This document shows positions 3,010 to 44,800 of a stretch of DNA of 64,000 bases, one piece after another. Position 1 is the first letter of the stretch, and each line of letters starts with the position of its first letter. A model generated the notes under the pieces. That model saw only the letters and a list, made by a program, of their open reading frames with translations, searched no databases and was not told the origin of the DNA. The stretch is taken from positions 92,117 through 156,116 of the forward strand of contig JAQUSJ010000002.1 in NCBI GenBank assembly GCA_028715175.1, read 5' to 3'. The DNA comes from Candidatus Daviesbacteria bacterium. Its GTDB lineage: Bacteria; Patescibacteriota; Microgenomatia; Daviesbacterales; UBA10151. The position numbers were made by a program, and so were the translations under genes.

Positions 3010-3096
3010 CTATCAGTCATCAGTCTTCAGTCGTCAGATAAAAATAAAAAAGTCTGACAGCTGAAAGCTGATAGCGAAGCGGTACTGACGACTATT
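3007..3096. repeat. Family-A element, atpA|atpG junction; its TAG is the atpA stop codon
   Basis: tagctatcagtcatcagtcttcagtcgtcagat...gtctgacagctgaaagctgatagcgaagcggtactgacgactatt ATG. Confidence 0.8.
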
Positions 3097-3960
3097 ATGG
3101 CTATCAAACAAATTGACGAAAGTATAGAAGAAGGAGAATCCTTAAAAGCGATTGCCCAGGCCTATTCTGAAATTTCCAACCTTAAAATCAAAAGGATCAG
3201 GACTCAAGTAGAAAGAAATCGGGTATTTTTTGATGAAATCCTGCAAGTTTACGCTATAGTCCGGGCTTTTGCCCTCTATAAAAAAGTGGCCGTAGTTAAG
3301 CCTAAAAAAAGACTCTGTATACTGCTTACTTCAAATTATAGATTCTACGGCGCTATCAATTCTTCCTTAACCAACTATTTCACCGGCTCAACCAGAGAGC
3401 TTCAGGATGTAGATAAACTAATCATAGGCAAAGGCGGCATTAACTATTTCAGGAGTAGCAAACTGCTGCCGTCTTACCGGGAAATGCTTTTAAAAGACGA
3501 TATGCCAACAGGAGAAGAACTCACCAGTTTGGCTAATTTAAGCACCAATTACAACCAGGTGCTGGTATTTCATGCCAAAATGAAAAGTCTGCTCATCCAG
3601 GTGGCCACCTTCACCGATGTTACAGCCACATCTCTTTATACCAGGGAATTTTATATCAAAGCTTTTGATACCAGGAAAAAAGAAAATATGATGCGCTTTA
3701 TTTTTGAGCCGGAATTACCTAAGATATTGAATTTTTTTGAAACCCAGATCATCACCCTGCTTCTTGAACAAACCTTTCTGGAATCAGAGCTGTCAAGAAC
3801 TGCCTCGCGTTTTATTGCCATGGATTCTGCTGAAACCGAGGCTAATAAATTTATTAAAGAATACCAGAAAATGAAAGCGCTGGCTAAACGAAACCTGGAT
3901 AATAATGCAATTTTGGAAAACTTTGCCGCTATGACGGCTATAAGAAAGGAGGGTTACAAA

Positions 3961-3963
<3 letters not shown>
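3097..3963 (+). CDS. atpG: ATP synthase subunit gamma
   Basis: 288 aa; N-terminal and C-terminal helices similar to gamma (MDSAETEANKFI ~ MDNASKNASEMI); lies between alpha and beta. Confidence 0.6.
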
Positions 3964-5471
<1,508 letters not shown>

Positions 5472-5474
<3 letters not shown>

Positions 5475-5550
5475 CTTTCAGTCATCAGCCTTCAGCTTTC
5501 AGACTTTTCTGAATTGTCTGAAGACTGAGAGCTGATAGCTGACGACTACT
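5472..5550. repeat. Family-A element, atpD|atpC junction; its TAG is the atpD stop. About 95% identical to the 3961 copy
   Basis: tagctttcagtcatcagccttcagctttcagac-ttttctgaatt-gtctgaagactgagagctgatagctgacgactact ATG. Confidence 0.8.
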
Positions 5551-5820
5551 ATGCAAACCTTACATGTCCGGATCGTCTCTCCTCAACAACTAATCCTCAA
5601 TACTGAGGCTATCTCAGTCAGTTCTAAAAATACACAGGGCAACTTTGATATCCTGGCCCAGCATGCAAATTTTATTACCTTGGTTGAAAATTCCCCTATT
5701 GTGATCCGGCAAGCCGAGCAGAAACCTCTTGTTTTTAAATTTCCTCTGGCCATTATTATCACCAGGGAAAATAAAGTTGATATCTACACATACATTCAAC
5801 CCCGGGCAGACAAGCGGTAA
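5551..5820 (+). CDS. atpC: ATP synthase subunit epsilon (N-terminal beta-sandwich domain only)
   Basis: GNFDILAQHANFITL ~ GELGILPGHAPLLTAL; 89 aa; no C-terminal helical hairpin. Confidence 0.6.
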   Translation: MQTLHVRIVSPQQLILNTEAISVSSKNTQGNFDILAQHANFITLVENSPIVIRQAEQKPLVFKFPLAIIITRENKVDIYTYIQPRADKR

Positions 5821-5907
5821 ACCTGATCTATTGTGATATTCTTCATGATCTAGTTTGTTATCCTCGCCTTTTTTTTCTTAATATAGTAATTACTATAATA
5901 ATAACCC

Positions 5908-5990
5908 TTGACAAATCTATGTAAATCTATGTACGATGAATTAAGAATCTATGCAGCATAAGCAGATTTGCATAGATTTCAGGTTTAGAC
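5908..5990 (+). promoter_or_regulatory. Candidate promoter (TTGACA-17-TACGAT) with three direct AATCTATG repeats and a 10-bp inverted repeat AATCTATGCA...TGCATAGATT, upstream of the giant gene
   Basis: Read directly: ttgaca at 5908-5913. aatctatg occurs at ~5914, 5923 and 5945; its reverse complement lies at ~5970-5981. Confidence 0.4.
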
Positions 5991-6009
5991 GGAACCGTCA
6001 GGTATCAAA

Positions 6010-9000
6010 ATGAGCGATCCGTCTACAACTAAACCTTTATTAAAAATTGGCCAAGCGGCCAAACTCCTGGGCGTTTCCATTGACACTCTTCGCAGATGGG
6101 AAAAGGCAGGCAAAATTACTGCAATCAGAACTCCGGGTGGAACCAGACTTTATCATCTCTCCCAACTTAAAAAGGTAAATCCAGCTTCGGTGGAAGATTT
6201 TCAGGCCAAAAGTTTTACTACGGAAGAATTGCTAAAGAAAACAGAAATCCAGACTGTAGATGATAGACAATGGAAGATAGGAGTAGAAGATAGAAATTGG
6301 ACGATAGATGATCAATCTTCTACCATCCACCTTCAAAAATCAACCTTCAATCCTCTATCTTCTATCGTCAATAAACTCCTCGTTGGCTCTGTTTTCTTAT
6401 CCATAATCACTCTCCTTATTACTTCCTGGATTACGGCTTCGTACCTCACCAATCCAAACCAAACCCAACAATTTTTCAAAAATAACATAGCCTCAGGTTT
6501 ATTTTCACCATTTCATAAGCTTGCAGAAGTAGCAGTAGCAGAAATCTCACCAGCCCAGGCTAAAATACTGGGTTTCATTCCGCCTGATGAACCACCGCCT
6601 TTAATAATTAGCCAACAACCAAATAAATCCTCTGCGGTGCTGGCTGTGACCAGCCTTCTTCCGTTTTTAGAGGTAAATGCTGATACTCAAATCAATGGTT
6701 CACTTTTTGTGCGCGACTCAGTCAACGGACTCAACATGGAAGCTACTTCCTCTGCGTCAAGCATGGCTCTAACTTCAGGAGATACCACATTGACTGTAAC
6801 AAAAGATGCCTTACTAGATCAAGATGTATCAACTACTGCTGCTCCAACCTTTAACACTCTCAATCTCTCAGCCACCAAAGACCAACTGGTTTTCCAGTCC
6901 GGCGGGCCTACAGGCACTCTAACCTGGACTCCCACTGCTACAAGAACTATTACCCTACCTGATGTCACCACCACCCTGGTTGGAAAAGACACCACAGATA
7001 CTTTAACCAACAAATCCCTTTCCGGCAGTTCCAACACTTTGACCAATATACCCAATTCTGCCCTGACTAATAGCAAAGTTACAGTCACAGCCGGAACTAA
7101 CTTAACAGGCGGCGGAGATATCAGCTTAGGCTCCTCGGCAACTATAGCATTAAAAGATTCGCCGTCTATCACAGGCACTTTAACAGTGGGCGGAACAACT
7201 ACGTTGAGCGGGGCAACCACACTTTCATCAACGCTGGCAGTTACCGGCGCTGCCACGTTTTCATCTACCATCACAGCCGGAGGAGTTGTCAAACTGACAG
7301 ATGGCACAGCAGCTGCACCAGCTTTAACTTTTACCAGTGATACCGACACAGGACTATACCGGATTGGAACAAACAAAATAGGACTGATTACCGCAGGAAC
7401 TGCTACTTCCGGTATTACCATTGATGAAAATGGCAATGTGGGAATAGGCACTATTTCCCCTACATCTCAATTACAAACCACTGGTAATGTAGGTATTGGC
7501 GGATCAGCCAGCATTACCTCTCTTCTTTCTGCCAATGGATCAGCAGCAGTAACCGGATCATTTTGTTTGAATGGAGATTGTAAAAGCTCATGGACAGGAA
7601 TAGGCGGATACACTGCCTCAAACGGTATCACCCTATCCTCTACTGACTTCCAGTTAGGCGGAAATTTAACCCGGGCTACAGGAATTGATATAGCGGGACA
7701 AAACTTTGGCTTTTTGGGAGGAAATGTTGGCATTGGGACGACTAATCCAAACTATCAACTAGAGACTACCGGTAATGTTGGGATAGGGGGATCATTAACA
7801 GTTACTTCTACCGGAGTATTTGGGTCTATCCAGGATAATGGATCATTAGTAGTCTCCGGTACTTCCTACCTACAGGGGATCTTGGGATCAACCCTGACCA
7901 CTACCGGAAACATTGGTATAGGCGGATCAGCTTCCATTGCCTCCAACTTAAATGCCGGATCATTAACTGTCACCGGACTGTCTTCCCTGGCTAATGTTAA
8001 TACTTCAGCTATTAACGCTTCCTCCTTAACCACTACCGGAAATATTACCTCCCAAGGAACATTCCTGGCTGCTAATGGTACTGCCTCTGCTCCCGGCTAT
8101 TCTTTTACTAATCTAACCAATGCAGGTTTATGGACAAATGGAGACGGATTGCTTTTAACCACCGGAGGAACTAATACTTCAGGGATTACTGTAACTGGAG
8201 CAGGCAATGTGGGGATTGGGACAACCATACCGGGAGCCACACTAGAGGTTGCTGGCTCTCAAACCATCGGATCAGCATCTTCCATCTCTAGTATTTTAAG
8301 ACTCTTTGGAAGCATTGGTTATGGTGAGTTTCGTATAGGAAGTTCTGACATTTATAACTGGCGAATGATGAGGGAAAATGCAACTACTGGCAGATTAGAC
8401 TTCATTCCTAGCACAGGCTCTCTAGGATCAATCCCAACATTAACCCTTCTAACTGATGGCAATGTCGGGATTGGGACAACTTCGCCTAATTATAAACTGG
8501 ATGTGGTTGGACAAATCAATAGTTCTACCGGGCTCTGTATTGATGGAGATTGTAAAACCTCATGGTCAGGATCTGCAGGATATACTGCCTCAAATGGTAT
8601 CACACTTACAGGCGTAGATTTCCAGTTAGGAGGAAGCTTAACCAGGGCTACAGGAATAGATATAGCTTCCCAAAACTTTGGCTTTTTAGGTGGCAATGTG
8701 GGGATTGGTAAATCTAATCCTTCCTACGCTTTAGATGTTTTAGGTACAGGCTACTTCTCCGGATTCCTGGGGGTTGGATCATCCATGAATGTAGCAGGCA
8801 ATGTAGGGATAGGCGGAACAGCTGCCATTACTTCACTTACCCAAGCCAATGGCGGTTTAACTGTTACAGGCGCTTCCATCCTGCAGGCTTTAACTGCCAC
8901 CGACATTAATGCCGCCACCTTAACCGCCACCGGAAATATTACCTCTCAAGGAACATTCCTGGCTGCCAATGGTACTGCCTCTGCTCCCGGCTATTCTTTT

Positions 9001-12000
9001 ACTAATCTAACCAATGCAGGTTTATGGACAAATGGAGACGGATTGCTTTTAACCACCGGAGGAACTAATACTTCAGGGATTACTGTAACCGGAGCCGGTA
9101 ATATTGGGATAGGAACCACTTCGCCTGCGTATAAACTGGATGTGGTTGGACAAATTAATAGCAGTACAGGTCTCTGTATTAACGGAGATTGTAAAAGTTC
9201 ATGGACAGGATCTGCAGGGTACACCGCCTCAAACGGTATCACACTATCCTCCGTAGACTTCCAGTTAGGCGGTAAGTTAACCAGGGCTACGGGAATTGAT
9301 ATTGCTTCCCAAAACTTTGGCTTTTTGGGTGGCAATGTGGGGATTGGGACAACAAGTCCTCAGACAGCTTTATCACTAAGTTCCGGACAATCTGCAACTG
9401 GCATCTCTCTTTACAACACTGCTGATGAAACAACAAACTATGAGCGGTTAAGAGCGTATTGGAGTAGTAACTATGCTTGGATAGATACTACCAAGGGAGG
9501 TAGCGGAACTAGTCGAGGGTTGATTATTAGCGGGGCAGGTGGACTTTTTCTAAAATCATCAACAAGTGTCTATTTTGATGCTGGCACTTCCTTTATTGTA
9601 GCATCGACTGGAATAACACCTTCTGCTACCATCACCCGGGCTACTGGTTATGCCAGATTTGGTGATGCCACAGCTCCTACCGTATCCTTAGAAGCTGCTA
9701 ATGGTTTCATTGTAGCCGCTGGCAACGTCGGAATTGGAACAACGGGGCCAGGGGCGCCGTTAGCAATAAATGGTGTGGGTAAAGCTAGCACCGATGACCT
9801 GCTTCTGGTTGGTCAAGGGGGAAGTGGACAAATCAGAGTCAGACACATTGAGGGAAAGCAGTCTGACAGCGACAACTATGGAGACTTATACCTCAATTAT
9901 AACTCAACGGGAAATGTCCTCTTAGTACGTGGCGGTGGTAATGTTGGGATTGGGACAATTTCTCCTACTGGTAAATTAATAGTTTCAGGAGGCAATGTTG
10001 GCATTGGAGTATCTACACCTCTCACTGCTTTAGCAGTTAACGGAGGAGGAACTATTGGCTGGGGTTTAACAGGAGTAGCAGGACCAACTAATGGATTGGC
10101 TGTATCTGGAAATGTAGGGATAGGAACTTCCAGTCCCAGCACTTTTAACCTGGAGGTAGCTGGAAATATTGGGCCGGAAGCAGACAGCACCAGAGATATT
10201 GGCTCTCCCAGCCGCTACTATGCCAACATTTATGCCAAAAATTTGATCACCGGCACTTCCGGTAATGTTGGATATTGGACCAGAACAGGTACTACTCTCT
10301 CTCCGGTTACAGCCGGTGACAACGTTTCTTTAACCGGCTCATATTCCTCTACCCCGGCCACAGACACACCAGCCATAACTTTAACCGGCACCAATGTTGC
10401 AACTTCTAACCTGGCCTACTTTAATGCCAAAAATACTTCCGGCACGATTTTTAATATCGCTTACGGAGCAGCAACAACTCTAACAGGAGATTTAGTCGGC
10501 ACCAGTATTGATTTAAATGACGGCAAAGTTACTGACAGCACTCACTCAATCACGGGATTTTATACTAAACTGCCAACAATCACAGCTGATAATGCCACCG
10601 GTATTGTTTCCTTAAAAGGATTATCTGTATTCTTTGGCACCGGCTCCGGTATTAATGAAACAGGGGCCGGGGCGCTCACTTACACTGCAGCTGATTTGTC
10701 AATGCCGGCTTTAACCCAAACTGCCGGAACTTTAACTGCCAACGGAGTTCTAATCACAACGCCTTTATCTATTACTACCGGCGGAACAGCCAACGGAGTC
10801 AATATTTCTCCAACAGGCGTGGGGGCGGGAACTTTAAATGCAATTAATATCGGCACAATCTCTCCCCTGGGGGGCACAGAAAATGCCATAGCAGTTGGGA
10901 CAGGCTGGGATAATGTCTTAAAAGTTGGTTCAACCACAGTCATTAACGGATCAGGTGTTACCCAGGTGGCAGGAGGAGGAACCGGCATTGCCACCTATAA
11001 TGTAGGTGACTTGCTTTATGCTTCAGGCGCCACCACTTTCACCAATATAGGCATTGGCACATCAGGACAGGTCTTAACAACAACAGCCGGAGTACCGATC
11101 TGGGGCAATGTTAACGGCTCCTCTTGTACCAACTGTCTGGTTAATAACCCGACTTCCACTCAGAATATCTCTCCCACAGGACAAACTACTACCGGTTTAT
11201 CTGTCAGGCAAACCTCAACCGGCTCCCCCACCCAGGACATCTTTAATGTCACCTCTTCAGACGGGGTTACCAAATACTTCTATGTAGACAGCAGCGGCAA
11301 TGTCTCAACAGGCGGAGTTGCTTCTCAAACCCTCACTTTAACCCCTACCTCTGATACTACCGCTTTAACCCTGGTGGGAACAAATGTAGCAACTTCTAAG
11401 CTGGCCTACTTTAATGCCAAAAATTTACAGGGCACTATCTTTGATATCTCTTATGGAGCTTCTGCTACTTTAAGGGCCAATCAAACATTAACAGGCCAAA
11501 ACATTGACCTTTCCACCAATGTTTCGGTCGGCGCCGGCAGTACAAATCCCATCTCGGTAACTGGCTTTGCCTTAACCATGCCGGCTCCCACCAACACCAA
11601 TACCTCCGGCACCAATGCCTTAAAGGGGCTGGTTATCACAGCCGGATCCGGCATTAACCAAAACGGCGCAGGCGGCACAACCACTTTTTCCGGAGTTGAT
11701 GTGACTATTCCCCCTCTTACTCAAACCGCCGGCACTTTAACCGGTAACGGAGTTTTAATAACCACTCCTTCCTCCATTACCACCGGAGGCACAGCCAATG
11801 GCTTAAATATCTCACCCACCGGAGTAGGCGCAGGAACGCTGAATGGCATAAACATTGGCAATATCACTGCCGGATCAGGAACTGAAACAGCTATCAATGT
11901 GGGAACAGGCTGGGATTATGGCCTTTATTCTCAAACTACCAATCCTTCCTATTTTGCCGGTAATGTTGGGATTGGAACAACAACACCGGGAGCCACACTA

Positions 12001-15000
12001 GAGGTTGCTGGCTCTCAAACCATCGGATCAGCAGCTTCCACCTCTAGTATTTTAAGACTCTTTGGAAGCGTTGGTTATGGTGAGCTTCGTATAGGAAATT
12101 CTGACACTTATAACTGGCGAATGATGAGGGAAAATCAAACTACTGGCAGATTAGACTTTATTCCCAGCACAGGCTCTCTAGGATCAACCCCAACATTAAC
12201 TCTTCTAACTGGTGGTAATATCGGCATTGGCTTTACTTCTCCTAATGCCCTGCTTCATATTGGAGGGGCTGATCAAACTACTTCTGCTTATGGTATTAAG
12301 ATGGGATCTGATATTACACTTTACAGATCAGCTACAAATACACTCAAAACAGATAATAATTTTGTGGTTGGAGGATCATTAACTACAGCCGGACTGACTA
12401 ATACCAGCCAATTCCTGGCAGCTAATGGAACTGCAGCTCTTCCCTCTTACTCTTTTACTAATCTAACTAATGCCGGATTATGGACTAATGGAAACGGACT
12501 ACTGTTAACTACAAACGGATCCAATACCTCAGGTATAACTGTAACAGGAGCAGGACTGGTTGGCATTGGGACAACTGCTCCTGTCTATGCTCTTGATATT
12601 GTTGGTAACTCTAGCTTATGGCAATCAGTTTATGGCACTGATGATGGTTTGGTAGGTTACTGGGATTTTTCAGAAGGAACAGGCACCAAAGCTTATGACA
12701 AAAGTCCTTATGGAAATGACGGCACAATTACTGCCGGCGCTGGTGGCTGGACAACCGGCAAATACGGAAATGCCTATGATTTTGATGGTGCCTCTGACGG
12801 TTCAGGCACTTATATTGATGTAGGAAATAAAATTACGGCAAGTAATTTGTCCAGCCTAACCATTGAAGCATGGTTAAAAAGGGATGCTATATCTCCTGCA
12901 GCAGAAGATCATATAATTTCCAACTGGACTGGTACTTATCATTTTGGCACTACTTCCAACAAGTTTTCAATCTATCTATATAACACTACTCCCACCCAAG
13001 GTAGTGTAACAGGAACAACTACTGTTACCAATGGTGTTTGGTATCATGTTGTTACCACCTACGATGGTTCAAAAATCAGAATCTATGTTAACGGCGTAGA
13101 AGAAAATTCAACAGATTTCTCTGGTAGTCTGCGTTCAAGCTCAACTACCACAAAAATTGGCGCCGGCGGAAGTTATCCAGGAGCTTGGGCAAGTTATCTG
13201 TTCAATGGCAAAATTGACGAACCAAGGATTTACACTCGGGCCCTATCAGCTGATGAAGTCAAAGCTCACTATTTAAGAGGAAGTAGTAATACGGCTGTAA
13301 CCATGAATACCTCTACCACAGCAGGAACTGTTTATGGCTTAAGAGGAGTAGTCACAGATACAGGAATAGTTACTACTGGCACAGATACCGCTTATGGTTC
13401 AAGAATTGATGTCACCCGAACAGGAGCAACCGGAGGAACCCTCAATACTTATGGACAATATCTTAACTTAACAACTGACAATGCCGGAGGCGGTACTCAT
13501 AATGCTTATGGTTTGTATGTTGCTTTAGATGGCAATGCAGACAATAATTATGCAGCGGTATTTACCGGAGGCAATGTCGGTATTGGGACAACTTCACCTG
13601 GGGCAAAATTAGCAGTGATTGGCAATGTTGGTATTGGCACTTCTGCTGCCGGAGCAGCGCTGCAGGTTAATGGCGGAGGTTTGTTTGGTTGGGGCACTAC
13701 TTCCATAGCAGGACCTTCTAATGGTTTAGCTGTATTTGGAAATGTTGGTATAGGTACTACCTCCCCTACTAATCCTTTAACAGTTATAGGCAATGCCAAT
13801 ATCGCCGGCACTTTAACTACAGCCGGACTTACCAATACCGGCCAATTCCTGGCTGCTAATGGTACTGCAGCTCTTCCCTCTTATTCTTTCTCAAATCTAA
13901 CTAATGCAGGTTTATGGACTAATGGGAATGGATTACTCTTGACTACAGGAGGAACCAATACTTCAGGAATTACTGTTACAGGAGCCGGAAATGTTGGAAT
14001 CGGGACAACCAGCCCAATAGGACAGCTTGCTCTGGGAACATACCAGGGAGGCACGGGAAGCAGTATTGTGGCCGCTTATGGTAAGCAGTTGACTTTAACA
14101 GGCGCTTTTAATGCTGGTTATAACACCGGCTCTCAAATTAAATTAATGATTAATGACTACAGCAATGATGGAGGAGATGATATCTATCCTATCTATGCCG
14201 AAGATGAGAATAACGGAGTTGATTTTTACATCAGAAATCAGGCAGGCACCAGAACAGCTTATTTCGGTGGCAACGTCGGAATTGGGGCAACTACGCCTGA
14301 GGCAAAACTTCATGTAGTCGGAACGTTAAGAACAGATAGCACTATTACAGCATATGTTAACGGTATTGATAATGCACCTATAACAATGGACTATTATAAC
14401 GGCAGGTACAGGATTGAATCGTATAAGTTAGCCACATCAGGACAGATAATGAGTATTAATGAAACTCTCCACGCTGTAATGTGGGGCAATGTGGGGATTG
14501 GAACACAGTCTCCTGCCAGCAAGCTTCATCTGCTTGGTTCAGGAGCTACTACTGCTCCCACCTTCATGACTCAAAACTCTACCTCTACCAACTTTGGCCT
14601 GGCAGTTTTGGATAATGGCAATGTAGGTATTGGGACGACGAGTCCGACATCTACCTTTGAAGTGGCGGCTTCCAAAACCATTAACTTTAACTCCAGTCCG
14701 GTTAGCAATCTAGTTTTAGGCAGTAATATGAGTGCCGGTAATTATAACATCACAAGTGTTAACCAATTAACAATAAACTCAACTAACGGAATAAACCGAG
14801 ATGTAGATAATAGCTATTTAAATTTGATGGGTGGGACTAACTGGTCTAGCGGCGGCGGCGCAGCAGTGTTGATTGCCGGAAAAGACCTTGCGGGTCAAAC
14901 AGGAAATGTTCGTGTTTATACTCCTAATGCGGCTGGAAGTAGCGGGCTTGAACGCCTAAATATTGGTGGACTCGCTACTACTGCTAATTTCATCATTTCA

Positions 15001-18000
15001 AATAGTAACGTTGGCATCGGGACACAGTCTCCTGTAGGAAAACTTCATCTGCTTGGTTCAGGGACTACTACTGCTCCCACCTTCATGACTCAAAACTCTA
15101 CGTCCACCAACTTTGGCCTGGCAGTTTTGGATAATGGCAATGTAGGTATTGGGACAACTAACCCAACAGAAAAATTATCAATACGAAGCTCTGCTGTTAG
15201 TACAAATGCATTTTCTTCAGTAGCTAATTCTGATGCATCTACATTTGTCTCTTTATATGGAGGGACTAATACTAATGAAGCTGCTATTATTTGGTCAAAT
15301 ACTTCCGGAAAAGCATTGCGTTTTGGAGTAGGAAATGATCCTTCTGCTTCAGGTGCATGGTCAGAAAAAATGCGGATTACAACCGCAGGCAATCTCGGTA
15401 TTGGCTTTACCTCTCCAGATAGACTACTTCAGATAGGGTCTGATATAAATATCACTGGTACTGCTGCTTCTATCTTAGGGGCTAATGGAACACAGTTTAG
15501 TATTACCGGCTCTACAGCCAATACCCTCCATAAAAAATTAACTCTGGGAATAGATACCACTGATAATTATGGTGTTATCCAGGCTGGAAATACAGACGGA
15601 ACAACATATAATTTAGCCCTAAATCCAGCCGGAGGCAATGTCGGGATAGGGACAACAGCGCTCAATTCTAAACTTCAAGTTGCATCTAGTTATAGCGGCA
15701 GCTATGGGGACAGTACAATTTATGGCTCATATTTTAACATGAACCTTAGTAGTGTTACCAATGCTACCAAAAATGGTTTATACAGCTTAGTAAACGGAAC
15801 TGTCGGCTATAATGGATACACCAATGCTATTTTAGGAGAAGTAAGCACAACAGGAACACAGAATAATGGAGTAATTGGCGTTTACGGATACTCTCACGCA
15901 ACCAGCAGTGAAGGTAATTATGGGCTTAAAGGTTATGCTAATAGTGGAGGATATACAAATGCCGGTATCTGGGCAGCAGTAGATGGAACAGGAGCCTCCT
16001 CAGGTGGTTATAATCCCAGTGCTCGTAACGGAAACTACGCTTTTTACGGCACAGCAACCACTACCGGAGCCGGTGCCACCAATGTAGGACTTTATGTCTC
16101 AGCCTCAGGAGCAGGTACGAATTACGCCGCCATTTTTGATCAAGGCAATGTCGGCATCGGGACGACAGCACCAGGATATAAATTATCGATCGCTGGCGAT
16201 GTAATTGTGGGCCAAACAACAGCAGGGACTTTGAGAATAAGTGAATCTGGTGATCCAACCAATAGAGATAGAGACTATGTATTTAATGGTTCCGCCAACT
16301 TACTAACTTTAAAACGTTCAGATGATGCGGGAGCTGGTTTCAATATTACAAATACAGGATCTATTGGCATCGGGACAGTGGGGCCAGCAATAAACCTAGC
16401 TATTGGTGATACCGATACCGGGTTAAAGTGGGTCTCTGACGGAATCATCACCATGTACGGCAACAATCAGGAACTTGCTCGGTTCGATGGGGATGGGACT
16501 CAAGGTGTGGAGCTTTGGATTAGCCAAGGAGCAAATACAGAACGCCTTTGTCATGCTGCCGGAGATGTAACAGCTCAAAGAGCCCTGATAGACGATTGTA
16601 GTGGTACCCCCGGAGATTATGCCGAAGAGTATGGTACCACAGATGTAAGCATCGAATCAGGGGATATTGTCATGGTCGACAAAACAAGATCAGCTCAGGA
16701 AATTGAAAAAGATGGGCTTAAAGGGTCAAAGGCCTGGATAGTCAAATCAAATAAATCATACCAGGATAGTATTATAGGCGTCATTTCTACTAACCCTAAT
16801 GAGGTAATTGGAAAGAATTTTGAGCCAGAAGAAAATCCCAGACCAGTATCTTTAAACGGTAGAGTTCCGGTTAAAGTTAGTACTGAAAACGGGCCTGTTG
16901 AGGTTGGAGATTATCTGACTTCATCTTCTGTTCCAGGAGTAAGTATGAAAGCGACTAAACCTGGTCCAGTTGTAGGTAAAGCATTGGAAGGCTATAACAA
17001 TCCTGATCCCACAGTAGTTGGCAAAATCTTAGTATTTATCAATATCTCATGGGTAGATCCCAACTATTCCCTGACAGCAGCAGCTACTTTGTCTTTGGAT
17101 GTAAACGGCAATCTCAATCTGACTTCACCATCGCTGACCTCTCCCTCTCTGACTCTTACTCCTACAGGCAACGTTGGCATTGGCACCTCCAGTCCGTCTG
17201 CAGCTTTGGATGTAGTGGGAAATGCTACCATCAGTGGCAGAATCTCCTCGGGGGTGGGCTTTGACTCCCCCGAGGTGAATACTCCGCTTTTGGACTTAGG
17301 CCCGGCCAGCATTGCTTCCTCCTCATCCGGCCTGGCTATCCAATTTGCAACTGACAACATGGGAGGTATACCAACTACATTCCAAATCAAGAACTCTTTA
17401 GGGCAAAACTTATTCCAGATTGACGCTTCAGGATCAGCAAAATTGGCCGGGACCATTACCACAGAAGCCGGAGCCTTTGATGTAGCAGAAGATTACAATG
17501 TAGCTGATGATTCAATTGAAGCAGGAGATGTAGTTAGTATAGACGATGGAAAATCGAGTATGGAAGATGGAATTTCGAAGATAGAAAATGGAAGTTTGAA
17601 TGAAGTAAGTCCATCTTCTACCATCAATCCTCAAAATACTACCCTCAATCCTCCATCATCTACCGTCGAAAAATCCTCAAAACCTTATGACAATAAGGTA
17701 GTCGGTATTATCTCCACCAAACCGGCAATAACTTTACAAAACAAACCAGGTTTGAATTCAGACAAACCTGGTTTGAGCACAAAACCGGTAGCTCTGGCCG
17801 GCAGAGTACCTGTGAAAGTTTCAACAGAAAACGGAATAATTGAAAAAGGAGATTATTTAACTTCCTCTTCAATTCCCGGGGTAGCAATGAAAGCTACCAG
17901 ACCTGGTCAAGTTATAGGAAAAGCATTAGAAGCTTTCAGCTGTCAGTCTTCAGCTATCAGCCGGACAGAAAATAGTCTGACAGCTGACAGCGAAGCGGTA

Positions 18001-19203
18001 CTGACGACTGAAAGCTGTCAAGGCAAAATCTTAATGTTTATTAATGTTGCTTTTGCCGACCCCGGCAACTTCTTTGCCTCTCTATCCTGGGATGAGCAAG
18101 GTAATCTGATAATTCCCAAGATCAAAACAAACTCATTAATGCTGGATCCGTCCGTTGCCTCTGCTTCCAGCCAATTAACTATTAACAATGAACAATTAAC
18201 TATTAACTCCGATCCCAACTTTATCTCCCCTGGTCCAAATCTGGCATCAAATACCAATAACTATATAGATTTATCAGGAGAGATAGCTTCTTTGGAGGAT
18301 AGAATCAAGAATCTAGAGTCTAGAGTCAAGGAACAGAATCAAGAAATCACTAGACTCTCGACTCTGGCAACTAGCAACTCCTCATCAGGTAATGTTGGAA
18401 TAGGAACAACTGAGCTTTCAGTCGTCAGCCCTCAGTCGTCAGACTCAGCTCAAATTGCTTCATCCTCTTCCAGTCTGACAGCTGATAGCCGACAGCTGAC
18501 ATCTGATTTGCACCTCACTCCTCCTGATATCCTGCTAACCACCGGTTCTGCCGTATTTACCAACTTGACTGTTAAATCAGAAGCCACTATGTCCGGACAA
18601 CTTAGCATCTATGACCTGTCAGTCTCAAATACTCTTAAGTCTTTGGGCAAAACTACTCTGGCCGACACCTTAATTGCCGGAGATCTGATGATAGACGGAA
18701 CAATGTCTATATCCGGAAACTCGATTAACTCCTCGGGGGTGGGCCTTGACTCCCCCGAGGTGAGTAACGGCACTCTATATCTGCAAAATTCTACCCTGGC
18801 CCAGGGCCTGGACATCTTCAATGGCAAAGTAACCATAGATCCCGCAGGAAATATAACAACTCAAGGCAAAGTTATTGCTTCTGAGGTTAAAACCAACAAG
18901 CTGACTATTTCCAATACACCAATAGCTACCTCCTCTGCGAACACACCAGGGGCGGGCTTTGACTCCCCTGGTGTGAACGGAGCCTCAATCGGCACAACAA
19001 CCTTACCTGCAGGAGCGACCGCTGTCACTATCCAGACTGCCCAAATAAGCGAGAGCGCTAAAGTCTTTATCACTCCAATAAGCCCGACAGACAAAGTTCT
19101 GTCTGTTACAGATATTAAACCGGGTACAAGCTTTGATGTTTCGATGCTTACCCCATCCCAGACAGATATTAAGTTTAACTGGTGGATAGTAGAAAGCAAA
19201 TAG
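6010..19203 (+). CDS. Giant (4397 aa) membrane-anchored surface protein: N-terminal MerR-type HTH, one TM helix, G-N-V-G-I-G-T repeat modules, LamG/ConA-like lectin domain, duplicated C-terminal modules
   Basis: Uninterrupted 13.2 kb ORF. IGQAAKLLGVSIDTLRRWEKAGKI...GGTRLY is MerR-like. TM helix LLVGSVFLSIITLLITSWITA. LamG-like GLVGYWDFSEGTGTKAYDKSPYGNDGTI...GKIDEPRIYTRALSADEV. More than 40 copies of NVGIGT. Confidence 0.8.
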   Translation: MSDPSTTKPLLKIGQAAKLLGVSIDTLRRWEKAGKITAIRTPGGTRLYHLSQLKKVNPASVEDFQAKSFTTEELLKKTEIQTVDDRQWKIGVEDRNWTIDDQSSTIHLQKSTFNPLSSIVNKLLVGSVFLSIITLLITSWITASYLTNPNQTQQFFKNNIASGLFSPFHKLAEVAVAEISPAQAKILGFIPPDEPPPLIISQQPNKSSAVLAVTSLLPFLEVNADTQINGSLFVRDSVNGLNMEATSSASSMALTSGDTTLTVTKDALLDQDVSTTAAPTFNTLNLSATKDQLVFQSGGPTGTLTWTPTATRTITLPDVTTTLVGKDTTDTLTNKSLSGSSNTLTNIPNSALTNSKVTVTAGTNLTGGGDISLGSSATIALKDSPSITGTLTVGGTTTLSGATTLSSTLAVTGAATFSSTITAGGVVKLTDGTAAAPALTFTSDTDTGLYRIGTNKIGLITAGTATSGITIDENGNVGIGTISPTSQLQTTGNVGIGGSASITSLLSANGSAAVTGSFCLNGDCKSSWTGIGGYTASNGITLSSTDFQLGGNLTRATGIDIAGQNFGFLGGNVGIGTTNPNYQLETTGNVGIGGSLTVTSTGVFGSIQDNGSLVVSGTSYLQGILGSTLTTTGNIGIGGSASIASNLNAGSLTVTGLSSLANVNTSAINASSLTTTGNITSQGTFLAANGTASAPGYSFTNLTNAGLWTNGDGLLLTTGGTNTSGITVTGAGNVGIGTTIPGATLEVAGSQTIGSASSISSILRLFGSIGYGEFRIGSSDIYNWRMMRENATTGRLDFIPSTGSLGSIPTLTLLTDGNVGIGTTSPNYKLDVVGQINSSTGLCIDGDCKTSWSGSAGYTASNGITLTGVDFQLGGSLTRATGIDIASQNFGFLGGNVGIGKSNPSYALDVLGTGYFSGFLGVGSSMNVAGNVGIGGTAAITSLTQANGGLTVTGASILQALTATDINAATLTATGNITSQGTFLAANGTASAPGYSFTNLTNAGLWTNGDGLLLTTGGTNTSGITVTGAGNIGIGTTSPAYKLDVVGQINSSTGLCINGDCKSSWTGSAGYTASNGITLSSVDFQLGGKLTRATGIDIASQNFGFLGGNVGIGTTSPQTALSLSSGQSATGISLYNTADETTNYERLRAYWSSNYAWIDTTKGGSGTSRGLIISGAGGLFLKSSTSVYFDAGTSFIVASTGITPSATITRATGYARFGDATAPTVSLEAANGFIVAAGNVGIGTTGPGAPLAINGVGKASTDDLLLVGQGGSGQIRVRHIEGKQSDSDNYGDLYLNYNSTGNVLLVRGGGNVGIGTISPTGKLIVSGGNVGIGVSTPLTALAVNGGGTIGWGLTGVAGPTNGLAVSGNVGIGTSSPSTFNLEVAGNIGPEADSTRDIGSPSRYYANIYAKNLITGTSGNVGYWTRTGTTLSPVTAGDNVSLTGSYSSTPATDTPAITLTGTNVATSNLAYFNAKNTSGTIFNIAYGAATTLTGDLVGTSIDLNDGKVTDSTHSITGFYTKLPTITADNATGIVSLKGLSVFFGTGSGINETGAGALTYTAADLSMPALTQTAGTLTANGVLITTPLSITTGGTANGVNISPTGVGAGTLNAINIGTISPLGGTENAIAVGTGWDNVLKVGSTTVINGSGVTQVAGGGTGIATYNVGDLLYASGATTFTNIGIGTSGQVLTTTAGVPIWGNVNGSSCTNCLVNNPTSTQNISPTGQTTTGLSVRQTSTGSPTQDIFNVTSSDGVTKYFYVDSSGNVSTGGVASQTLTLTPTSDTTALTLVGTNVATSKLAYFNAKNLQGTIFDISYGASATLRANQTLTGQNIDLSTNVSVGAGSTNPISVTGFALTMPAPTNTNTSGTNALKGLVITAGSGINQNGAGGTTTFSGVDVTIPPLTQTAGTLTGNGVLITTPSSITTGGTANGLNISPTGVGAGTLNGINIGNITAGSGTETAINVGTGWDYGLYSQTTNPSYFAGNVGIGTTTPGATLEVAGSQTIGSAASTSSILRLFGSVGYGELRIGNSDTYNWRMMRENQTTGRLDFIPSTGSLGSTPTLTLLTGGNIGIGFTSPNALLHIGGADQTTSAYGIKMGSDITLYRSATNTLKTDNNFVVGGSLTTAGLTNTSQFLAANGTAALPSYSFTNLTNAGLWTNGNGLLLTTNGSNTSGITVTGAGLVGIGTTAPVYALDIVGNSSLWQSVYGTDDGLVGYWDFSEGTGTKAYDKSPYGNDGTITAGAGGWTTGKYGNAYDFDGASDGSGTYIDVGNKITASNLSSLTIEAWLKRDAISPAAEDHIISNWTGTYHFGTTSNKFSIYLYNTTPTQGSVTGTTTVTNGVWYHVVTTYDGSKIRIYVNGVEENSTDFSGSLRSSSTTTKIGAGGSYPGAWASYLFNGKIDEPRIYTRALSADEVKAHYLRGSSNTAVTMNTSTTAGTVYGLRGVVTDTGIVTTGTDTAYGSRIDVTRTGATGGTLNTYGQYLNLTTDNAGGGTHNAYGLYVALDGNADNNYAAVFTGGNVGIGTTSPGAKLAVIGNVGIGTSAAGAALQVNGGGLFGWGTTSIAGPSNGLAVFGNVGIGTTSPTNPLTVIGNANIAGTLTTAGLTNTGQFLAANGTAALPSYSFSNLTNAGLWTNGNGLLLTTGGTNTSGITVTGAGNVGIGTTSPIGQLALGTYQGGTGSSIVAAYGKQLTLTGAFNAGYNTGSQIKLMINDYSNDGGDDIYPIYAEDENNGVDFYIRNQAGTRTAYFGGNVGIGATTPEAKLHVVGTLRTDSTITAYVNGIDNAPITMDYYNGRYRIESYKLATSGQIMSINETLHAVMWGNVGIGTQSPASKLHLLGSGATTAPTFMTQNSTSTNFGLAVLDNGNVGIGTTSPTSTFEVAASKTINFNSSPVSNLVLGSNMSAGNYNITSVNQLTINSTNGINRDVDNSYLNLMGGTNWSSGGGAAVLIAGKDLAGQTGNVRVYTPNAAGSSGLERLNIGGLATTANFIISNSNVGIGTQSPVGKLHLLGSGTTTAPTFMTQNSTSTNFGLAVLDNGNVGIGTTNPTEKLSIRSSAVSTNAFSSVANSDASTFVSLYGGTNTNEAAIIWSNTSGKALRFGVGNDPSASGAWSEKMRITTAGNLGIGFTSPDRLLQIGSDINITGTAASILGANGTQFSITGSTANTLHKKLTLGIDTTDNYGVIQAGNTDGTTYNLALNPAGGNVGIGTTALNSKLQVASSYSGSYGDSTIYGSYFNMNLSSVTNATKNGLYSLVNGTVGYNGYTNAILGEVSTTGTQNNGVIGVYGYSHATSSEGNYGLKGYANSGGYTNAGIWAAVDGTGASSGGYNPSARNGNYAFYGTATTTGAGATNVGLYVSASGAGTNYAAIFDQGNVGIGTTAPGYKLSIAGDVIVGQTTAGTLRISESGDPTNRDRDYVFNGSANLLTLKRSDDAGAGFNITNTGSIGIGTVGPAINLAIGDTDTGLKWVSDGIITMYGNNQELARFDGDGTQGVELWISQGANTERLCHAAGDVTAQRALIDDCSGTPGDYAEEYGTTDVSIESGDIVMVDKTRSAQEIEKDGLKGSKAWIVKSNKSYQDSIIGVISTNPNEVIGKNFEPEENPRPVSLNGRVPVKVSTENGPVEVGDYLTSSSVPGVSMKATKPGPVVGKALEGYNNPDPTVVGKILVFINISWVDPNYSLTAAATLSLDVNGNLNLTSPSLTSPSLTLTPTGNVGIGTSSPSAALDVVGNATISGRISSGVGFDSPEVNTPLLDLGPASIASSSSGLAIQFATDNMGGIPTTFQIKNSLGQNLFQIDASGSAKLAGTITTEAGAFDVAEDYNVADDSIEAGDVVSIDDGKSSMEDGISKIENGSLNEVSPSSTINPQNTTLNPPSSTVEKSSKPYDNKVVGIISTKPAITLQNKPGLNSDKPGLSTKPVALAGRVPVKVSTENGIIEKGDYLTSSSIPGVAMKATRPGQVIGKALEAFSCQSSAISRTENSLTADSEAVLTTESCQGKILMFINVAFADPGNFFASLSWDEQGNLIIPKIKTNSLMLDPSVASASSQLTINNEQLTINSDPNFISPGPNLASNTNNYIDLSGEIASLEDRIKNLESRVKEQNQEITRLSTLATSNSSSGNVGIGTTELSVVSPQSSDSAQIASSSSSLTADSRQLTSDLHLTPPDILLTTGSAVFTNLTVKSEATMSGQLSIYDLSVSNTLKSLGKTTLADTLIAGDLMIDGTMSISGNSINSSGVGLDSPEVSNGTLYLQNSTLAQGLDIFNGKVTIDPAGNITTQGKVIASEVKTNKLTISNTPIATSSANTPGAGFDSPGVNGASIGTTTLPAGATAVTIQTAQISESAKVFITPISPTDKVLSVTDIKPGTSFDVSMLTPSQTDIKFNWWIVESK
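17246..17277. repeat. Family-D perfect hairpin (CCTCGGGGGTGGGCTTTGACTCCCCCGAGGTG), in frame in the giant gene (SGVGFDSPEV)
   Basis: 9-10-bp GC-rich stem read directly. Confidence 0.75.
17931..18017. repeat. Family-A element inserted in frame inside the giant gene (encodes AFSCQSSAISRTENSLTADSEAVLTTESCQ)
   Basis: The paralogous module at 16980-17040 has GYNNPDPTVV at the equivalent position. Confidence 0.75.
18414..18506. repeat. Family-A element inserted in frame inside the giant gene (encodes ELSVVSPQSSDSAQIASSSSSLTADSRQLTSD)
   Basis: gagctttcagtcgtcagccctcagtcgtcagac...agtctgacagctgatagccgacagctgac. Confidence 0.7.
18731..18762. repeat. Family-D hairpin in frame in the giant gene (SGVGLDSPEV)
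   Basis: cctcgggggtgggccttgactcccccgaggtg. Confidence 0.75.
18947..18974. repeat. Family-D hairpin variant in frame in the giant gene (PGAGFDSPGV)
   Basis: ccaggggcgggctttgactcccctggtg. Confidence 0.6.
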
Positions 19204-19210
19204 GACCTAT

Positions 19211-19789
19211 ATGACAGATACGACCTATCCGACAGATCAAAAGAAAACGCACGGCGGTTACCGTAACCTCCGATCTTTCCAAACTGCCACCCTTATATAT
19301 GACCTGACTGTCGAATTTTGCGATCGTTATATGACCTATCCGACTAATAAGTCTTATAGGACCTATGATCAAATGGTGCAAGCGGCAAGGAGCGGCAGAC
19401 AAAACATTGCTGAAGGTTCCCAAGCCTCCGCCGTCTCTAAAAAATCAGAAATCAAACTGGTAGGAGTAGCCAGAGCTTCACTGGAAGAGCTACTTATAGA
19501 CTACGAGGATTTTTTAAGACAACGGTCTTTGCCTCTTTGGAGCAAAGGTTGCCCCCAGGCTCAAACTATTAGGAATCTGACGTATAAGACGGATAAGACT
19601 TATACGACCTATCAGACCTATCTTAAAAATCCTGAATCTGCAGCTAATTGCTTAATCTGCCTGATTCATCAAGCTAATTATCTTTTAGACAAACAACTTC
19701 AGGCTTTAGAAAAAGCCTTTATTACCCAAGGCGGTTATTCTGAAAATCTCTTTAAAGCCCGCCTGAAAAAGAGGGAATCAGACCGATGA
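19211..19789 (+). CDS. Four-helix-bundle protein (23S rRNA IVS-protein family) with repeat-derived N-terminus
   Basis: NIAEGSQAS...VARASLEELLIDYEDFL matches the NIAEG...IARGSL.EL motif of four-helix-bundle proteins. The N-terminal TYPT/TYKTDKTYTTYQTY peptides are encoded by gacctat/taagtc repeats. Confidence 0.5.
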   Translation: MTDTTYPTDQKKTHGGYRNLRSFQTATLIYDLTVEFCDRYMTYPTNKSYRTYDQMVQAARSGRQNIAEGSQASAVSKKSEIKLVGVARASLEELLIDYEDFLRQRSLPLWSKGCPQAQTIRNLTYKTDKTYTTYQTYLKNPESAANCLICLIHQANYLLDKQLQALEKAFITQGGYSENLFKARLKKRESDR

Positions 19790-34789: not shown

Positions 34790-35220
34790 TATTTTATCTT
34801 AACAGATCTTCTGACATTCTGAATTTCTGATCTACTGAGTCTTTCTGAGTAATTCCGAAGTCTAGTCTTTCCTGCTGATTATCTTGCTCCTTTATCCTAG
34901 GATGGATAACCATTTTCACTAGTATATAAATACTACACTAGTAGATTATCATTTACAAGACGTTCCAGCATATAGCTAGATTTTGTATCTCCATATTAGA
35001 TTTTTGACAAAAAGATTTTTCAAAATTCTCGAAGGTTAAAACGTCGATGGAGAAAGACAGTTCTTCTCTAAAAGCTGTCTTACGACGCTCTGAACCCAGC
35101 TCGCGTACCGCTTTAACTGGCGAACAGCCAGACCCTTCCCACCTACTTCAGCAGGAGGATGCGATGAGCCGACATCGAGGTGCCGAACCTTGCCGTCCTT
35201 GTGGACTGTAGGGCAAGACT

Positions 35221-35251
<31 letters not shown>

Positions 35252-35568
35252 ATAAGCCCTGACGCTCCCACGAGCCATCAGGGGATCATTAAGACCTACT
35301 TTCGTATTAGCTCGACATGTACGTCTCGCTATTAAGCACACTCTATACCTTTACGCTTGATGCGCGATTTCCTTACGCGCTAAGTGTACCTTAGTACCCC
35401 TCCGTTACTTTTTTGGAGGGAACCGCCCCAGTTAAACTGCCCGCCAGACCTTGTCCCAAACCCTGTTTTTATAAGGGTTAAGGTGAGACCTAAATTCAAA
35501 AAAGAGAGGTGTTTCATTGTTGCCGAAGCTCCCTCCTACGCTACACAATTTTAAATTTAAATCAGGGT

Positions 35569-35604
<36 letters not shown>

Positions 35605-35758
35605 AAGTATGGGAAGGCCGCATCTTCACAGCCATTGCAATTTCGCCGGGTCTATCCTCAAGACAGTCGCTAAGTCGTTCAACCTTTCGTGCGGGTCTGA
35701 ACTCACCAGACAAGGAACTTCGCTCAATTATGTTGCTGTGACAATCTAATCGTCACAT

Positions 35759-37206: not shown

Positions 37207-37312
37207 GCACTCACGCTCCGCGTGAGAGTTATTAGTTATGAGTTCATAGTTCATAGAAAATTACTACGAACTACCAACTACGAACTACCAACTCTCGTGC
37301 GAAGCACGAGTA
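37207..37312 (-). repeat. 23S IVS cassette 1: CACGCTCCGCGTGAGAG ... CTCTCGTGCGAAGCACGAG flanks around a TTCATAG/CGAACTAC repeat hairpin
   Basis: The same 17-19-nt flanks as IVS cassette 2; inserted in 23S. Confidence 0.6.
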
Positions 37313-38042: not shown

Positions 38043-38106
38043 GCACGAGTTTCACTGCTTGTCAACATACGGTTTCAGGTACTATTTCACTGAGCGTTTC
38101 GCTCTT

Positions 38107-38146
<40 letters not shown>

Positions 38147-42485: not shown

Positions 42486-44800
<2,315 letters not shown>

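Follow-up and report, generated by a model that had tools for sequence, protein, structure and literature searches.

A giant membrane-anchored fibre-like protein of Candidatus Daviesbacteria with a BldC-like DNA-binding domain and a likely role in regulating its own gene

In a stretch of 64,000 nucleotides (nt) from a Candidatus Daviesbacteria bacterium (contig JAQUSJ010000002.1 of assembly GCA_028715175.1, positions 92,117 to 156,116; hereafter the window), one gene encodes a protein of 4,397 amino acids (aa) that joins an N-terminal winged helix-turn-helix (wHTH) DNA-binding domain, through a single transmembrane (TM) helix, to a very long fibre-like ectodomain. We consider it probable, though well short of certain, that this protein is a membrane-tethered, BldC-like autoregulator fused to a giant and probably trimeric fibre; the binding to DNA, the sign of the regulation, the trimer and the topology with the N-terminus inside (N-in) are all inferred. 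The single giant protein proposed in an earlier note on this DNA is borne out, the gene being one open reading frame (ORF) of 4,397 codons without internal stop or frame break. The domain order given there, a cytoplasmic MerR-type HTH followed by one TM helix and a giant ectodomain, is also correct according to Pfam, hydropathy and AlphaFold.

Results

The N-terminal domain resembles BldC

The first ~60 residues, which had been assigned to the MerR type from the letters alone, match Pfam MerR (PF00376) at aa 12-48 with 57.6 bits against a cut-off of 28.2. HTH_17 and MerR_1 match the same stretch, the latter only over profile positions 2-44 of 69. AlphaFold models aa 10-60 as a strand-helix-helix-strand-strand-helix wHTH with a predicted local distance difference test score (pLDDT) of 86-90. 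A phmmer sequence search of the PDB returned BldC as top match (6AMK/6AMA, E 5e-7), and Foldseek likewise places BldC first (TM-score 0.79-0.86, root mean square deviation 1.6-1.9 Å, 38-39% identity), with SoxR, BmrR, MtaN and CueR also matching over the HTH. Among the NCBIfam models HTH_BldC ranks first (33.7 bits, cut-off 77), followed by "excisionase" and "IS607 family transposase" (24.6 bits for the IS607 model, cut-off 110), all of them below cut-off.

BldC, a MerR-like wHTH protein, has neither a dimerisation coiled coil nor an effector domain and forms head-to-tail multimers on 9-bp direct repeats, its Arg30 reading a 5'-YpG step and its wing sitting in the AT-rich minor groove (PMC5859096). 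In the phmmer alignment residue n of BldC corresponds to residue n-1 of the giant protein, and Arg29, Trp30 and Arg46 (BldC Arg30, Trp31 and Arg47) are invariant across the family alignment. No long MerR coiled coil is predicted, since after the HTH AlphaFold gives a 14-residue helix (aa 71-84), then disorder and then the TM helix. Judged by sequence and predicted fold, the domain is closest to the BldC/IS607 wHTH type, expected to bind repeated sites on its own, and not a classical MerR. In four related loci (L012, L023, L024 and L047) two HTH domains stand in direct tandem before the linker and TM helix, within the first ~110 codons, an arrangement that would suit adjacent direct repeats.

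A conserved array of repeats fills the promoter

The -35/-10 promoter overlapped by three direct repeats that the earlier note had described is found as TTGACA-18 nt-TACGAT, with direct copies of AATCTATG at 5914, 5924 and 5946 and one inverted copy at 5971-5978, all within 65 bp. We refer to the corresponding sites as S1 to S4. The TATG of S2 abuts the -10 hexamer. Over the whole window AATCTATG occurs six times, the two copies elsewhere being at chance level. When the 11-mer AAATCTATGYA is allowed up to one mismatch, four of its seven matches in the window fall within 67 bp at the promoter and the remaining three compare with 3.9 expected by chance. The inverted repeat AATCTATGCA/TGCATAGATT reported previously is present with a gap of 13 nt between its arms, not 14. 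As for the palindromic operator proposed with it, the inverted S3/S4 pair exists, but the array consists mainly of direct repeats and shows no classical MerR palindrome.

The 220 nt 5' of each homologue were compared, and 48 loci entered the alignment. The segment cTTGACAAATCTATGyAAATCTATGTAcgaTGGATtaAG is ungapped in these 48 loci, and the promoter core TTGACAAATCTATGyAAATCTATGTAcgaTGG is kept, together with downstream and inverted copies of AATCTATGCA, across orthologues that share only 30-85% protein identity; S3 (GAATCTATGCA) and inverted S4 (TGCATAGATTT) are retained in most close orthologues. The sequence of a -35/-10 spacer is normally free to vary. Here the spacer holds 1-1.9 bits per position over the 48 loci, versus 0.1-0.5 bits upstream of the -35. 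In the ~770 kb of fetched loci, clusters of the motif are found almost exclusively in front of HTH-giant genes, and no further site clusters hinting at a regulon were seen in the window or the fetched flanks. A metagenome scan with the pattern AATCTATGNNAATCTATG, whose 16 specified bases are too few for the size of the collection, gave 100 pattern occurrences, nearly all of them chance or 10-bp tandem repeats, and one true promoter (L115).

Other elements were noted around the promoter. The direct repeats that follow the atpC stop codon have the form TGATCTA.TTGT.AT, and a related motif lies 5' of the promoter in 13 loci including the window. In 36 of 53 loci AGACGG precedes the start codon, usually at -14 to -23, which is ~50-fold above background (0.013 expected per locus). 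The 5' untranslated region (5'-UTR) element with consensus GCAGACGGA was considered as a Shine-Dalgarno sequence and rejected, because the 3' end of the 16S rRNA in the window (42486-42499) is canonical (CCTCC) and the element, a poor match, is not complementary to it. Rfam finds no known leader RNA or riboswitch in 5800-6010.

Copies resembling the operator sites occur inside genes as well. In several paralogues [ACG]AAATCTATGCA, read as K/Q/E-I-Y-A, occurs one to three times in frame, shortly ahead of the segment that codes for the TM helix (L023 6612-6647, L024 6339-6374, L047 6465-6488, L032 6273-6314, L049 6561, also L025 and L027). Since 13 of 13 such copies in eight loci use the codons ATC-TAT-GCA despite the rarity of ATC (27% of Ile codons), the in-frame motif appears, from this codon choice, to be under selection at the DNA level. 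The gene in the window has no in-frame KIYA-type site.

The repeats change together with the HTH encoded in cis

Searching a single genome for each species gave 78 loci. In 54 loci the recognition helix starts with S-[I/V/Q]-D-T or similar, with a residue other than Lys at the S-x-D-T position; an ATCTATG-type site lies upstream in 51 of them, and 45 contain two or more. None of the four loci with Lys has such a site (Fisher p = 8e-5). The four Lys loci keep the promoter layout but switch the repeat sequence. Indeed, in L043, L199/L208 and L200 the repeat is AAC[CA]TTATGCA and the HTH has S-K-D-T with a wing changed from GGTR to SGYR (PSGYR), and in L026 ATATATGCA half-site repeats go with H-K-D-T and the wing DQKGDR. 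Furthermore, the shared 3' half TATGCA, which holds the YpG step, accompanies the invariant Arg29, and the changed 5' half accompanies the changed wing; such a pairing may be expected from the structure of BldC. Two contigs that belong to a single metagenome-assembled genome (MAG), L039 and L043, hold different HTH/site pairs. Among the S-K-D-T proteins that were added, L208 is supportive and not independent, its lineage having already been seen, and L209 is an unrelated high-GC stand-alone HTH.

The same motif is found in unrelated contexts. The nearest HTHs outside the Candidate Phyla Radiation (CPR) belong to cyanobacterial IS607-family elements (59-72% segment identity), in which TnpA, a MerR HTH plus resolvase, is followed by TnpB. 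In five of these elements the left end reads AATCTATGctAATCTATGCA, ~21 nt and then tATGCATAGATT; it contains two 10-bp-spaced direct copies of AATCTATG (AATCTATGnnAATCTATGCA) and one inverted copy that overlaps the tnpA start codon. IS607 TnpA binds short repeated subterminal motifs cooperatively via its N-terminal domain (PMC6188088). In addition, several small HTH-TM proteins of Woesebacteria that have the same recognition helix carry one AATCTATGCA in the promoter spacer.

Taking together the co-variation, the IS607 ends, the small relatives and the tandem HTHs, it is likely that the HTH binds AAATCTATGyA, in which case the gene would be autoregulated. Autoregulation had been suggested in the earlier note and gains comparative support from an array that is conserved, that varies with the HTH and that shows the same pairing in independent settings.

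One TM helix separates the HTH from the ectodomain

A hydropathy scan of the whole protein finds one strongly hydrophobic segment, at aa 123-145 (Kyte-Doolittle 2.27), and AlphaFold extends the helix over aa 117-147, which agrees with the single TM helix that had been placed ~130 aa in. The preceding linker is disordered over aa 84-116 in the AlphaFold model and varies in sequence and length among relatives. One TM helix, 75-245 aa from the N-terminus, is found in every long-enough CPR HTH ORF but three, the exceptions being loci with a second segment above the hydropathy threshold. Lys and Arg are richer on the N-terminal side of the TM helix in 30 loci and poorer in seven. From the hydropathy, this charge bias and the lack of a signal peptide, the giant protein is predicted to be N-in (type II).

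Small HTH proteins of 205-263 aa were also found, in Woesebacteria (L064, L066, L067, L073, L076 and L078) and in an Aenigmatarchaeota MAG (L074). They end in a C-terminal TM helix with almost no outside part. Membrane-tethered BldC-like HTHs seem to be a wider CPR theme.

The ectodomain resembles phage tail fibres

Part of the ectodomain base is common to many ~600-aa proteins, some of which have Pfam PF18454. Beyond it, the NVGIGT repeats and Cys pairs noticed earlier are present as 30 copies of the motif GN[VIL]G[IV][GA] and as pairs at residues 519/524, 843/848 and 1056/1061. Repeat counts rest on motif matching and module alignment, and BLAST of the protein against itself returned no large internal duplications. 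Outside the named domains the ectodomain is rich in Thr, Gly, Ser and Asn, and several of its segments match PHROG tail-fibre families (phrog_9942, E 2e-17; phrog_18345). The LamG domain of the earlier note is confirmed by Pfam Laminin_G_3, its position being corrected from ~12640-13260 to the one given in Table 1; NCBIfam TafC matches weakly over the same domain.

The two copies of a C-terminal module and the coiled coil, which had also been recognised before, are likewise found. The modules are ~50% identical to each other and share the consensus D-x-A-E-x-Y ... GVVST.P ... PVAL.GRVPVKVSTENG.I..GDYLTSSS.PGVAMKATKPG.VIG.ALE ... VF.N. AlphaFold gives the module core a pLDDT above 95, and Foldseek matches it to phage cement/decoration proteins and to the C-terminal fragment of phi29 gp12 (3GQH/3SUC, TM-score 0.38-0.53). 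The cement proteins in question are trimers, and the phi29 gp12 fragment is an auto-chaperone released by cleavage. Pfam Peptidase_G2 is matched by five of 35 module homologues, and the orthologue P0171 has a Peptidase_S74 chaperone domain. In the protein itself, Pfam searches of seven ectodomain segments at E up to 5 gave no S74 or G2 match and nothing besides LamG and a borderline K1-lyase_C; a PDB sequence search with the module gave no match. Hence, of the proposed resemblance to tail-fibre and Peptidase_S74 proteins, the tail-fibre part holds through PHROG; for the S74 part this protein gives no Pfam match, and its modules look nearer to Peptidase_G2 and the phage cement fold. Because of the PHROG matches, the module folds, the Peptidase_G2 homologues and the S74 domain of P0171, the best reading of the ectodomain is a probably trimeric, tail-fibre-like surface fibre with a lectin domain, which may also be processed.

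Intein-related sequences were observed in the fibre of some orthologues. P0184 has an Intein_splicing domain (Pfam, E 1.5e-14) at aa 1913-2143, inside the exported fibre region, and an intein splicing domain or Hint-like sequence is also found in the C-terminal parts of P0004 and P0015.

The fusion is a family trait of the lineage

A protein search with aa 1-383 found ~30 proteins of the same N-terminal build (HTH, variable linker with TEELL, TM helix, ectodomain base), 34-86% identical in the alignment; where a name is given, it is Candidatus Daviesbacteria, Microgenomates or Patescibacteria. Contigs break within the repeats, which leaves most database homologues "partial", and the fragments are labelled "MerR family DNA-binding transcriptional regulator, partial". 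In L001-L055 the HTH ORF continues for hundreds to more than 2,400 codons, often past the end of the fetched stretch. An exhaustive search of cluster representatives (E up to 1e-30) gave 61 clusters; complete homologues span 2,000-4,057 aa, and full-length ones that start with the HTH have 4,057, 4,025 and 3,711 aa. The HTH-TM-fibre gene is present at ~55 loci and in more than 50 independent assemblies of Daviesbacteria/Microgenomates from many studies, which answers in the affirmative the earlier question whether other CPR giant proteins share the N-terminal HTH.

Genes of the F1Fo ATP synthase lie directly upstream of the giant ORF (Pfam on the window), and atpD-atpC precedes the gene in 44 of 55 loci, with a gap of mostly 80-500 nt and at most ~1.4 kb. 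No HTH-TM-fibre relative was found among IMG/VR viral contigs. A prophage or phage origin of the locus was considered and is ruled out by this core-genome context and the lack of IMG/VR relatives; by its genomic position the giant fibre gene is a core-genome gene of the lineage. Some records (L006, L010-L013, L015, L018, L020 and others) are titled "uncultured Gammaproteobacteria bacterium". Their contigs are Daviesbacteria-like, with the same gene and the same atp synteny, and the titles are probably wrong.

Features of the window and neighbouring genes

The features are collected in Table 1.

Table 1. Features of the giant gene, its promoter and its surroundings (window positions unless a locus is named; operator sites are putative)
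Feature	Position	Strand	Basis or remark
Alpha/beta-family subunit genes of F1Fo ATP synthase	1555-3009 and 4041-5474		
Gamma subunit of F1Fo ATP synthase	3097-3963		
Epsilon subunit of F1Fo ATP synthase	5551-5820		
Two direct repeats, TGATCTAtTGTGATAT / TGATCTAGTTTGTTAT	5824-5864	+	Between atpC stop and promoter
-35 hexamer TTGACA	5908-5913	+	Anchor for aligning 48 related promoters
Sites S1 and S2, AAATCTATGT twice in tandem, then a shared A	5913-5933	+	10-bp spacing; fill the -35/-10 spacer
-10-like hexamer TACGAT	5932-5937	+	18 nt after -35; spacing invariant in ungapped 48-locus alignment
Site S3, GAATCTATGCA	5945-5955	+	Near predicted transcription start; left arm of inverted repeat
Site S4, AAATCTATGCA	5969-5979	-	Right arm of inverted repeat, 13 nt from S3
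TAGACGGA	5986-5993	+	Window copy of the 5'-UTR element (consensus GCAGACGGA)
Giant gene	6010-19203	+	4,397 aa, continuous frame
wHTH, BldC / IS607-TnpA / MerR type, cytoplasmic (predicted)	6037-6189	+	aa 10-60; Pfam, PDB, AlphaFold, Foldseek
Linker	6190-6357	+	aa 61-116; short helix with conserved TEELL, then disorder; alignment, AlphaFold
Single TM helix, signal-anchor	6376-6444	+	aa 123-145; hydropathy, AlphaFold
Conserved ectodomain base (FLEVNADTQINGSL ... TNIPNSALTNSKVTVTAGTNLTGGGD)	6664-7164	+	Alignment; phrog_692
Fibre region, 30 GNVGIG-type repeats and Cys pairs	7432-18420	+	Motif matching; PHROG tail-fibre families
LamG / ConA-like lectin domain	12796-13263	+	aa 2263-2418; Pfam Laminin_G_3, E 7e-28
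C-terminal module 1 (DYAEEY ... GRVPVKVSTENG ... GDYLTSSSVPGVSMKAT ... ILVFIN)	16612-17061	+	aa 3535-3684; alignment
C-terminal module 2, second copy of module 1 with longer insert	17476-18063	+	aa 3823-4018; alignment
Coiled-coil-like stretch	18271-18369	+	aa 4088-4120; weak DivIC and other coiled-coil matches
K1-lyase_C-like terminal domain	18982-19143	+	aa 4325-4378; Pfam PF24146, 27.7 bits vs cut-off 27
Cyanobacterial IS607 left-end motif	L056 1912-1952; L057 5942-5993; L061-L063 about 5942-5993		

On the 3' side the giant gene is followed by a four-helix-bundle protein (19211-19789; 23S_rRNA_IVP family plus 4helix_suffix domain) and by a 785-aa O-antigen-ligase-like (Wzy_C) membrane protein with TPR repeats (19873-22230). 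Neither was found in the related loci within the stretch of up to ~6 kb after the N-terminal match, which is mostly the giant gene itself. Many window genes, those of the atp operon especially, are preceded by CTGACGACTAyT(A)ATG inside low-complexity GCTGATAGCTGA-type spacers (copies at 1030-1056, 3070-3096, 4015-4040, 5525-5550 and 59570-59596), with no Shine-Dalgarno match. The 16S gene of the window (42499-44798, reverse strand) is matched by its model in three pieces, with ~1.2 kb between that holds an ORF at 43040-43636, and the 23S gene (35022-38616, reverse strand) exceeds the model length by ~670 nt; both oddities look like the rRNA insertions typical of CPR bacteria.

Discussion

A tethered autoregulator and its alternatives

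In the mechanism that we propose, the giant protein would be a type II membrane protein whose BldC-like wHTH is kept in the cytoplasm on a flexible linker of ~60 aa, with the single TM helix as anchor and ~4,250 aa exported as a phage-tail-fibre-like, probably trimeric fibre that bears the LamG lectin domain and two C-terminal trimerisation/auto-chaperone-like modules. The cytoplasmic HTH would recognise the AAATCTATGyA sites of its own promoter, S1 and S2 standing head-to-tail in the spacer, S3 near the transcription start and S4 inverted 13 nt further, and the number of membrane-inserted molecules would feed back on the transcription of a very costly gene. Repression, and with it negative feedback, is the more likely sign: the promoter has a perfect -35, its spacer, -10 flank and start region are covered by the sites, and occupancy would therefore hinder RNA polymerase.

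Several points weigh against this mechanism or parts of it. Activation in the way of MerR-type proteins, which can switch on promoters from sites inside the spacer, is a lesser possibility, given that the spacer of 18 nt is somewhat long and that BldC bends DNA. A separate paralogue of the same specificity, soluble or small and membrane-tethered, could occupy the sites, and the inverted repeat formed by S3 and S4 may work as an RNA hairpin. For the trimer and the N-in topology we rely on homology and charge bias. The co-variation comes from only three to four variant lineages, partly related, with variant motifs that were defined after viewing, and neither motif accompanies L207, a small S-K-D-T HTH-TM protein whose wing differs. 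On a wider regulon, the metagenome scan is uninformative.

The alternative that survives best, which we still regard as unlikely, is that the sites are operators for another protein, either soluble or of the small HTH-TM kind, and that the HTH of the giant protein does not set the transcription rate but holds chromosomal DNA or its own locus at the membrane, for example by RacA-like anchoring or as an aid to transertion of the 13-kb mRNA. Indeed, related CPR lineages have small HTH-TM proteins whose HTH is almost the same, and RacA, which has a MerR-like wHTH, anchors DNA instead of regulating. Transertion by membrane-bound regulators is on record (PMC9977878). However, the motif varies with the HTH encoded in cis, two different pairs within one MAG included, no HTH paralogue is found within the 64-kb window, and the sites lie exactly on the core promoter, where they could hardly be occupied without affecting transcription.

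We give less credence to the possibility that the HTH is freed by regulated intramembrane or juxtamembrane proteolysis when the fibre signals, for instance, contact or damage, and then acts as a soluble regulator of this and other genes. The long disordered linker between HTH and TM helix in the AlphaFold model would permit such a release, and proteolytic activation of other membrane-bound regulators, for example CadC, has been reported (PMC11484849). Yet no protease gene, cleavage motif or conserved linker sequence besides TEELL was found, the window and flanks hold no extra site clusters of the kind expected for a regulon, and the small HTH-TM relatives have almost no ectodomain with which to sense. 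Proteolytic release and the sensing of surface or host contact had both been put forward in the earlier note; nothing was found in support of either.

Slightly less probable again is that the inverted repeat forms a stem-loop in the 5'-UTR which stabilises the long mRNA or gates its translation, the spacer repeats being promoter-strength elements. RNA 5940-6015 does fold to -18.7 kcal/mol (z = -3.35), with S3 and S4 as an 11-bp stem, and the contact of S2 with the -10 hexamer also speaks for it. Nevertheless, a hairpin cannot explain S1 and S2, because they lie upstream of the predicted start and thus outside the RNA. Moreover, both arms hold the same motif with no free co-variation, all sites change motif together in the HTH variants, and the motif also occurs at IS607 ends that have no such promoter.

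An artefact, namely an unnoticed frameshift (at ~6200-6400, where the earlier note had allowed for one) or a chimeric assembly of a small regulator gene and a fibre gene, can be dismissed as next to impossible, because the frame is unbroken and the HTH-linker-TM-ectodomain-base junction recurs in more than 50 assemblies, complete homologues included; no support for it was found, though contig breaks in the repeats leave most database homologues partial.

Possible origin and significance

The control module of the tethered autoregulator may plausibly derive from a transposon end. The fuller scenario, a domesticated IS607-type end together with a transposase DNA-binding domain that serve as a self-recognising module, combined with fibre counting and action in cis, is speculative and as a whole doubtful. 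If the fibre is trimeric, three tethered HTHs per fibre would face the direct sites S1-S3, and the promoter would count assembled, membrane-inserted fibres. Being translated first, the HTH may act on its own gene in cis while the remaining 4,300 residues are still being made, which takes minutes. The in-frame AAAATCTATGCA (KIYA) sites of some paralogues, located before the TM segment, raise the possibility that the protein grips or pauses its own gene at membrane insertion.

Membrane-bound transcription factors are known as small sensors. The full-text literature searched describes neither a giant membrane-anchored fibre with a MerR-type HTH fused to it nor this Daviesbacteria family, and a giant structural protein that would regulate its own gene via a built-in HTH looks like an arrangement undescribed there. 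CPR bacteria have tiny cells and few conventional regulators. If the proposal is true, a fibre of more than 4,000 residues with its own promoter-specific domain would tie the synthesis of an extremely costly envelope protein directly to its amount in a new manner. Throughout Daviesbacteria the family keeps one fixed place in the core genome, so that it probably matters for the cell surface of these uncultivated episymbionts and perhaps for their attachment to hosts. The system would also offer a compact natural example of co-evolving HTH/operator pairs and, if the transposon-end reading is true, one in which gene regulation has taken over the DNA-binding module of a transposase.

Comparison with known systems

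By their defining features, the giant protein is not a member of the MerR, BldC, IS607-transposase or ToxR families, and it shares traits with each of them. Like the classical MerR activators (MerR, CueR, SoxR, BmrR), it has a Pfam MerR HTH above cut-off and sites inside the -35/-10 spacer. Unlike them, it has neither the antiparallel coiled-coil dimerisation helix nor an effector domain, and its sites are direct repeats without palindrome in a spacer of 18 nt instead of 19-20.

With phage tail fibres that carry chaperone domains it shares PHROG families, a module fold like that of the phi29 gp12 fragment and the trimeric cement proteins, module homologues that match Peptidase_G2 and an orthologue, P0171, that matches the endosialidase-type Peptidase_S74. 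It differs from them in its core-chromosome location with no relatives in IMG/VR, its N-terminal TM anchor, its two tandem modules with ~380 aa beyond, and the lack of a Pfam G2 or S74 match in this protein.

ToxR, TcpP, CadC, VtrA and ChiS/TfoS have OmpR/PhoB-type (or AraC-type) domains and small periplasmic sensors, and their targets are other genes. The giant protein resembles them in combining a cytoplasmic DNA-binding domain, a single TM helix and an extracytoplasmic domain, assuming the predicted topology. In contrast to these regulators its HTH is of the MerR/BldC type, the outside part is a 4,250-aa structural fibre and its own promoter is the only target seen. ToxR-type transmembrane regulators are described as acting while membrane-bound (PMC11856585, PMC7888679).

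IS607 TnpA also has an N-terminal MerR-like HTH, the cyanobacterial HTHs being the 59-72% identical ones, with the same AATCTATG motif layout. The giant protein, however, has no serine-recombinase domain (no Pfam Resolvase match) and no accompanying tnpB, and its gene, unlike IS607 elements, is fixed after the atp operon, with its sites embedded in a sigma-70-type promoter.

BldC of Streptomyces is the closest in sequence and fold, a wHTH without MerR coiled coil or effector domain. It differs in being a free 68-aa protein with a regulon, whereas the domain described here begins a membrane protein of 4,397 aa, scores below the NCBIfam BldC cut-off and has Thr in place of the wing His46 of BldC. 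Its DNA-reading Arg and the neighbouring Trp are nonetheless invariant in the giant-protein family, and just as BldC binds 9-10-bp direct repeats head-to-tail (PMC5859096), the giant protein would find conserved 10-bp-spaced repeats in its own promoter.

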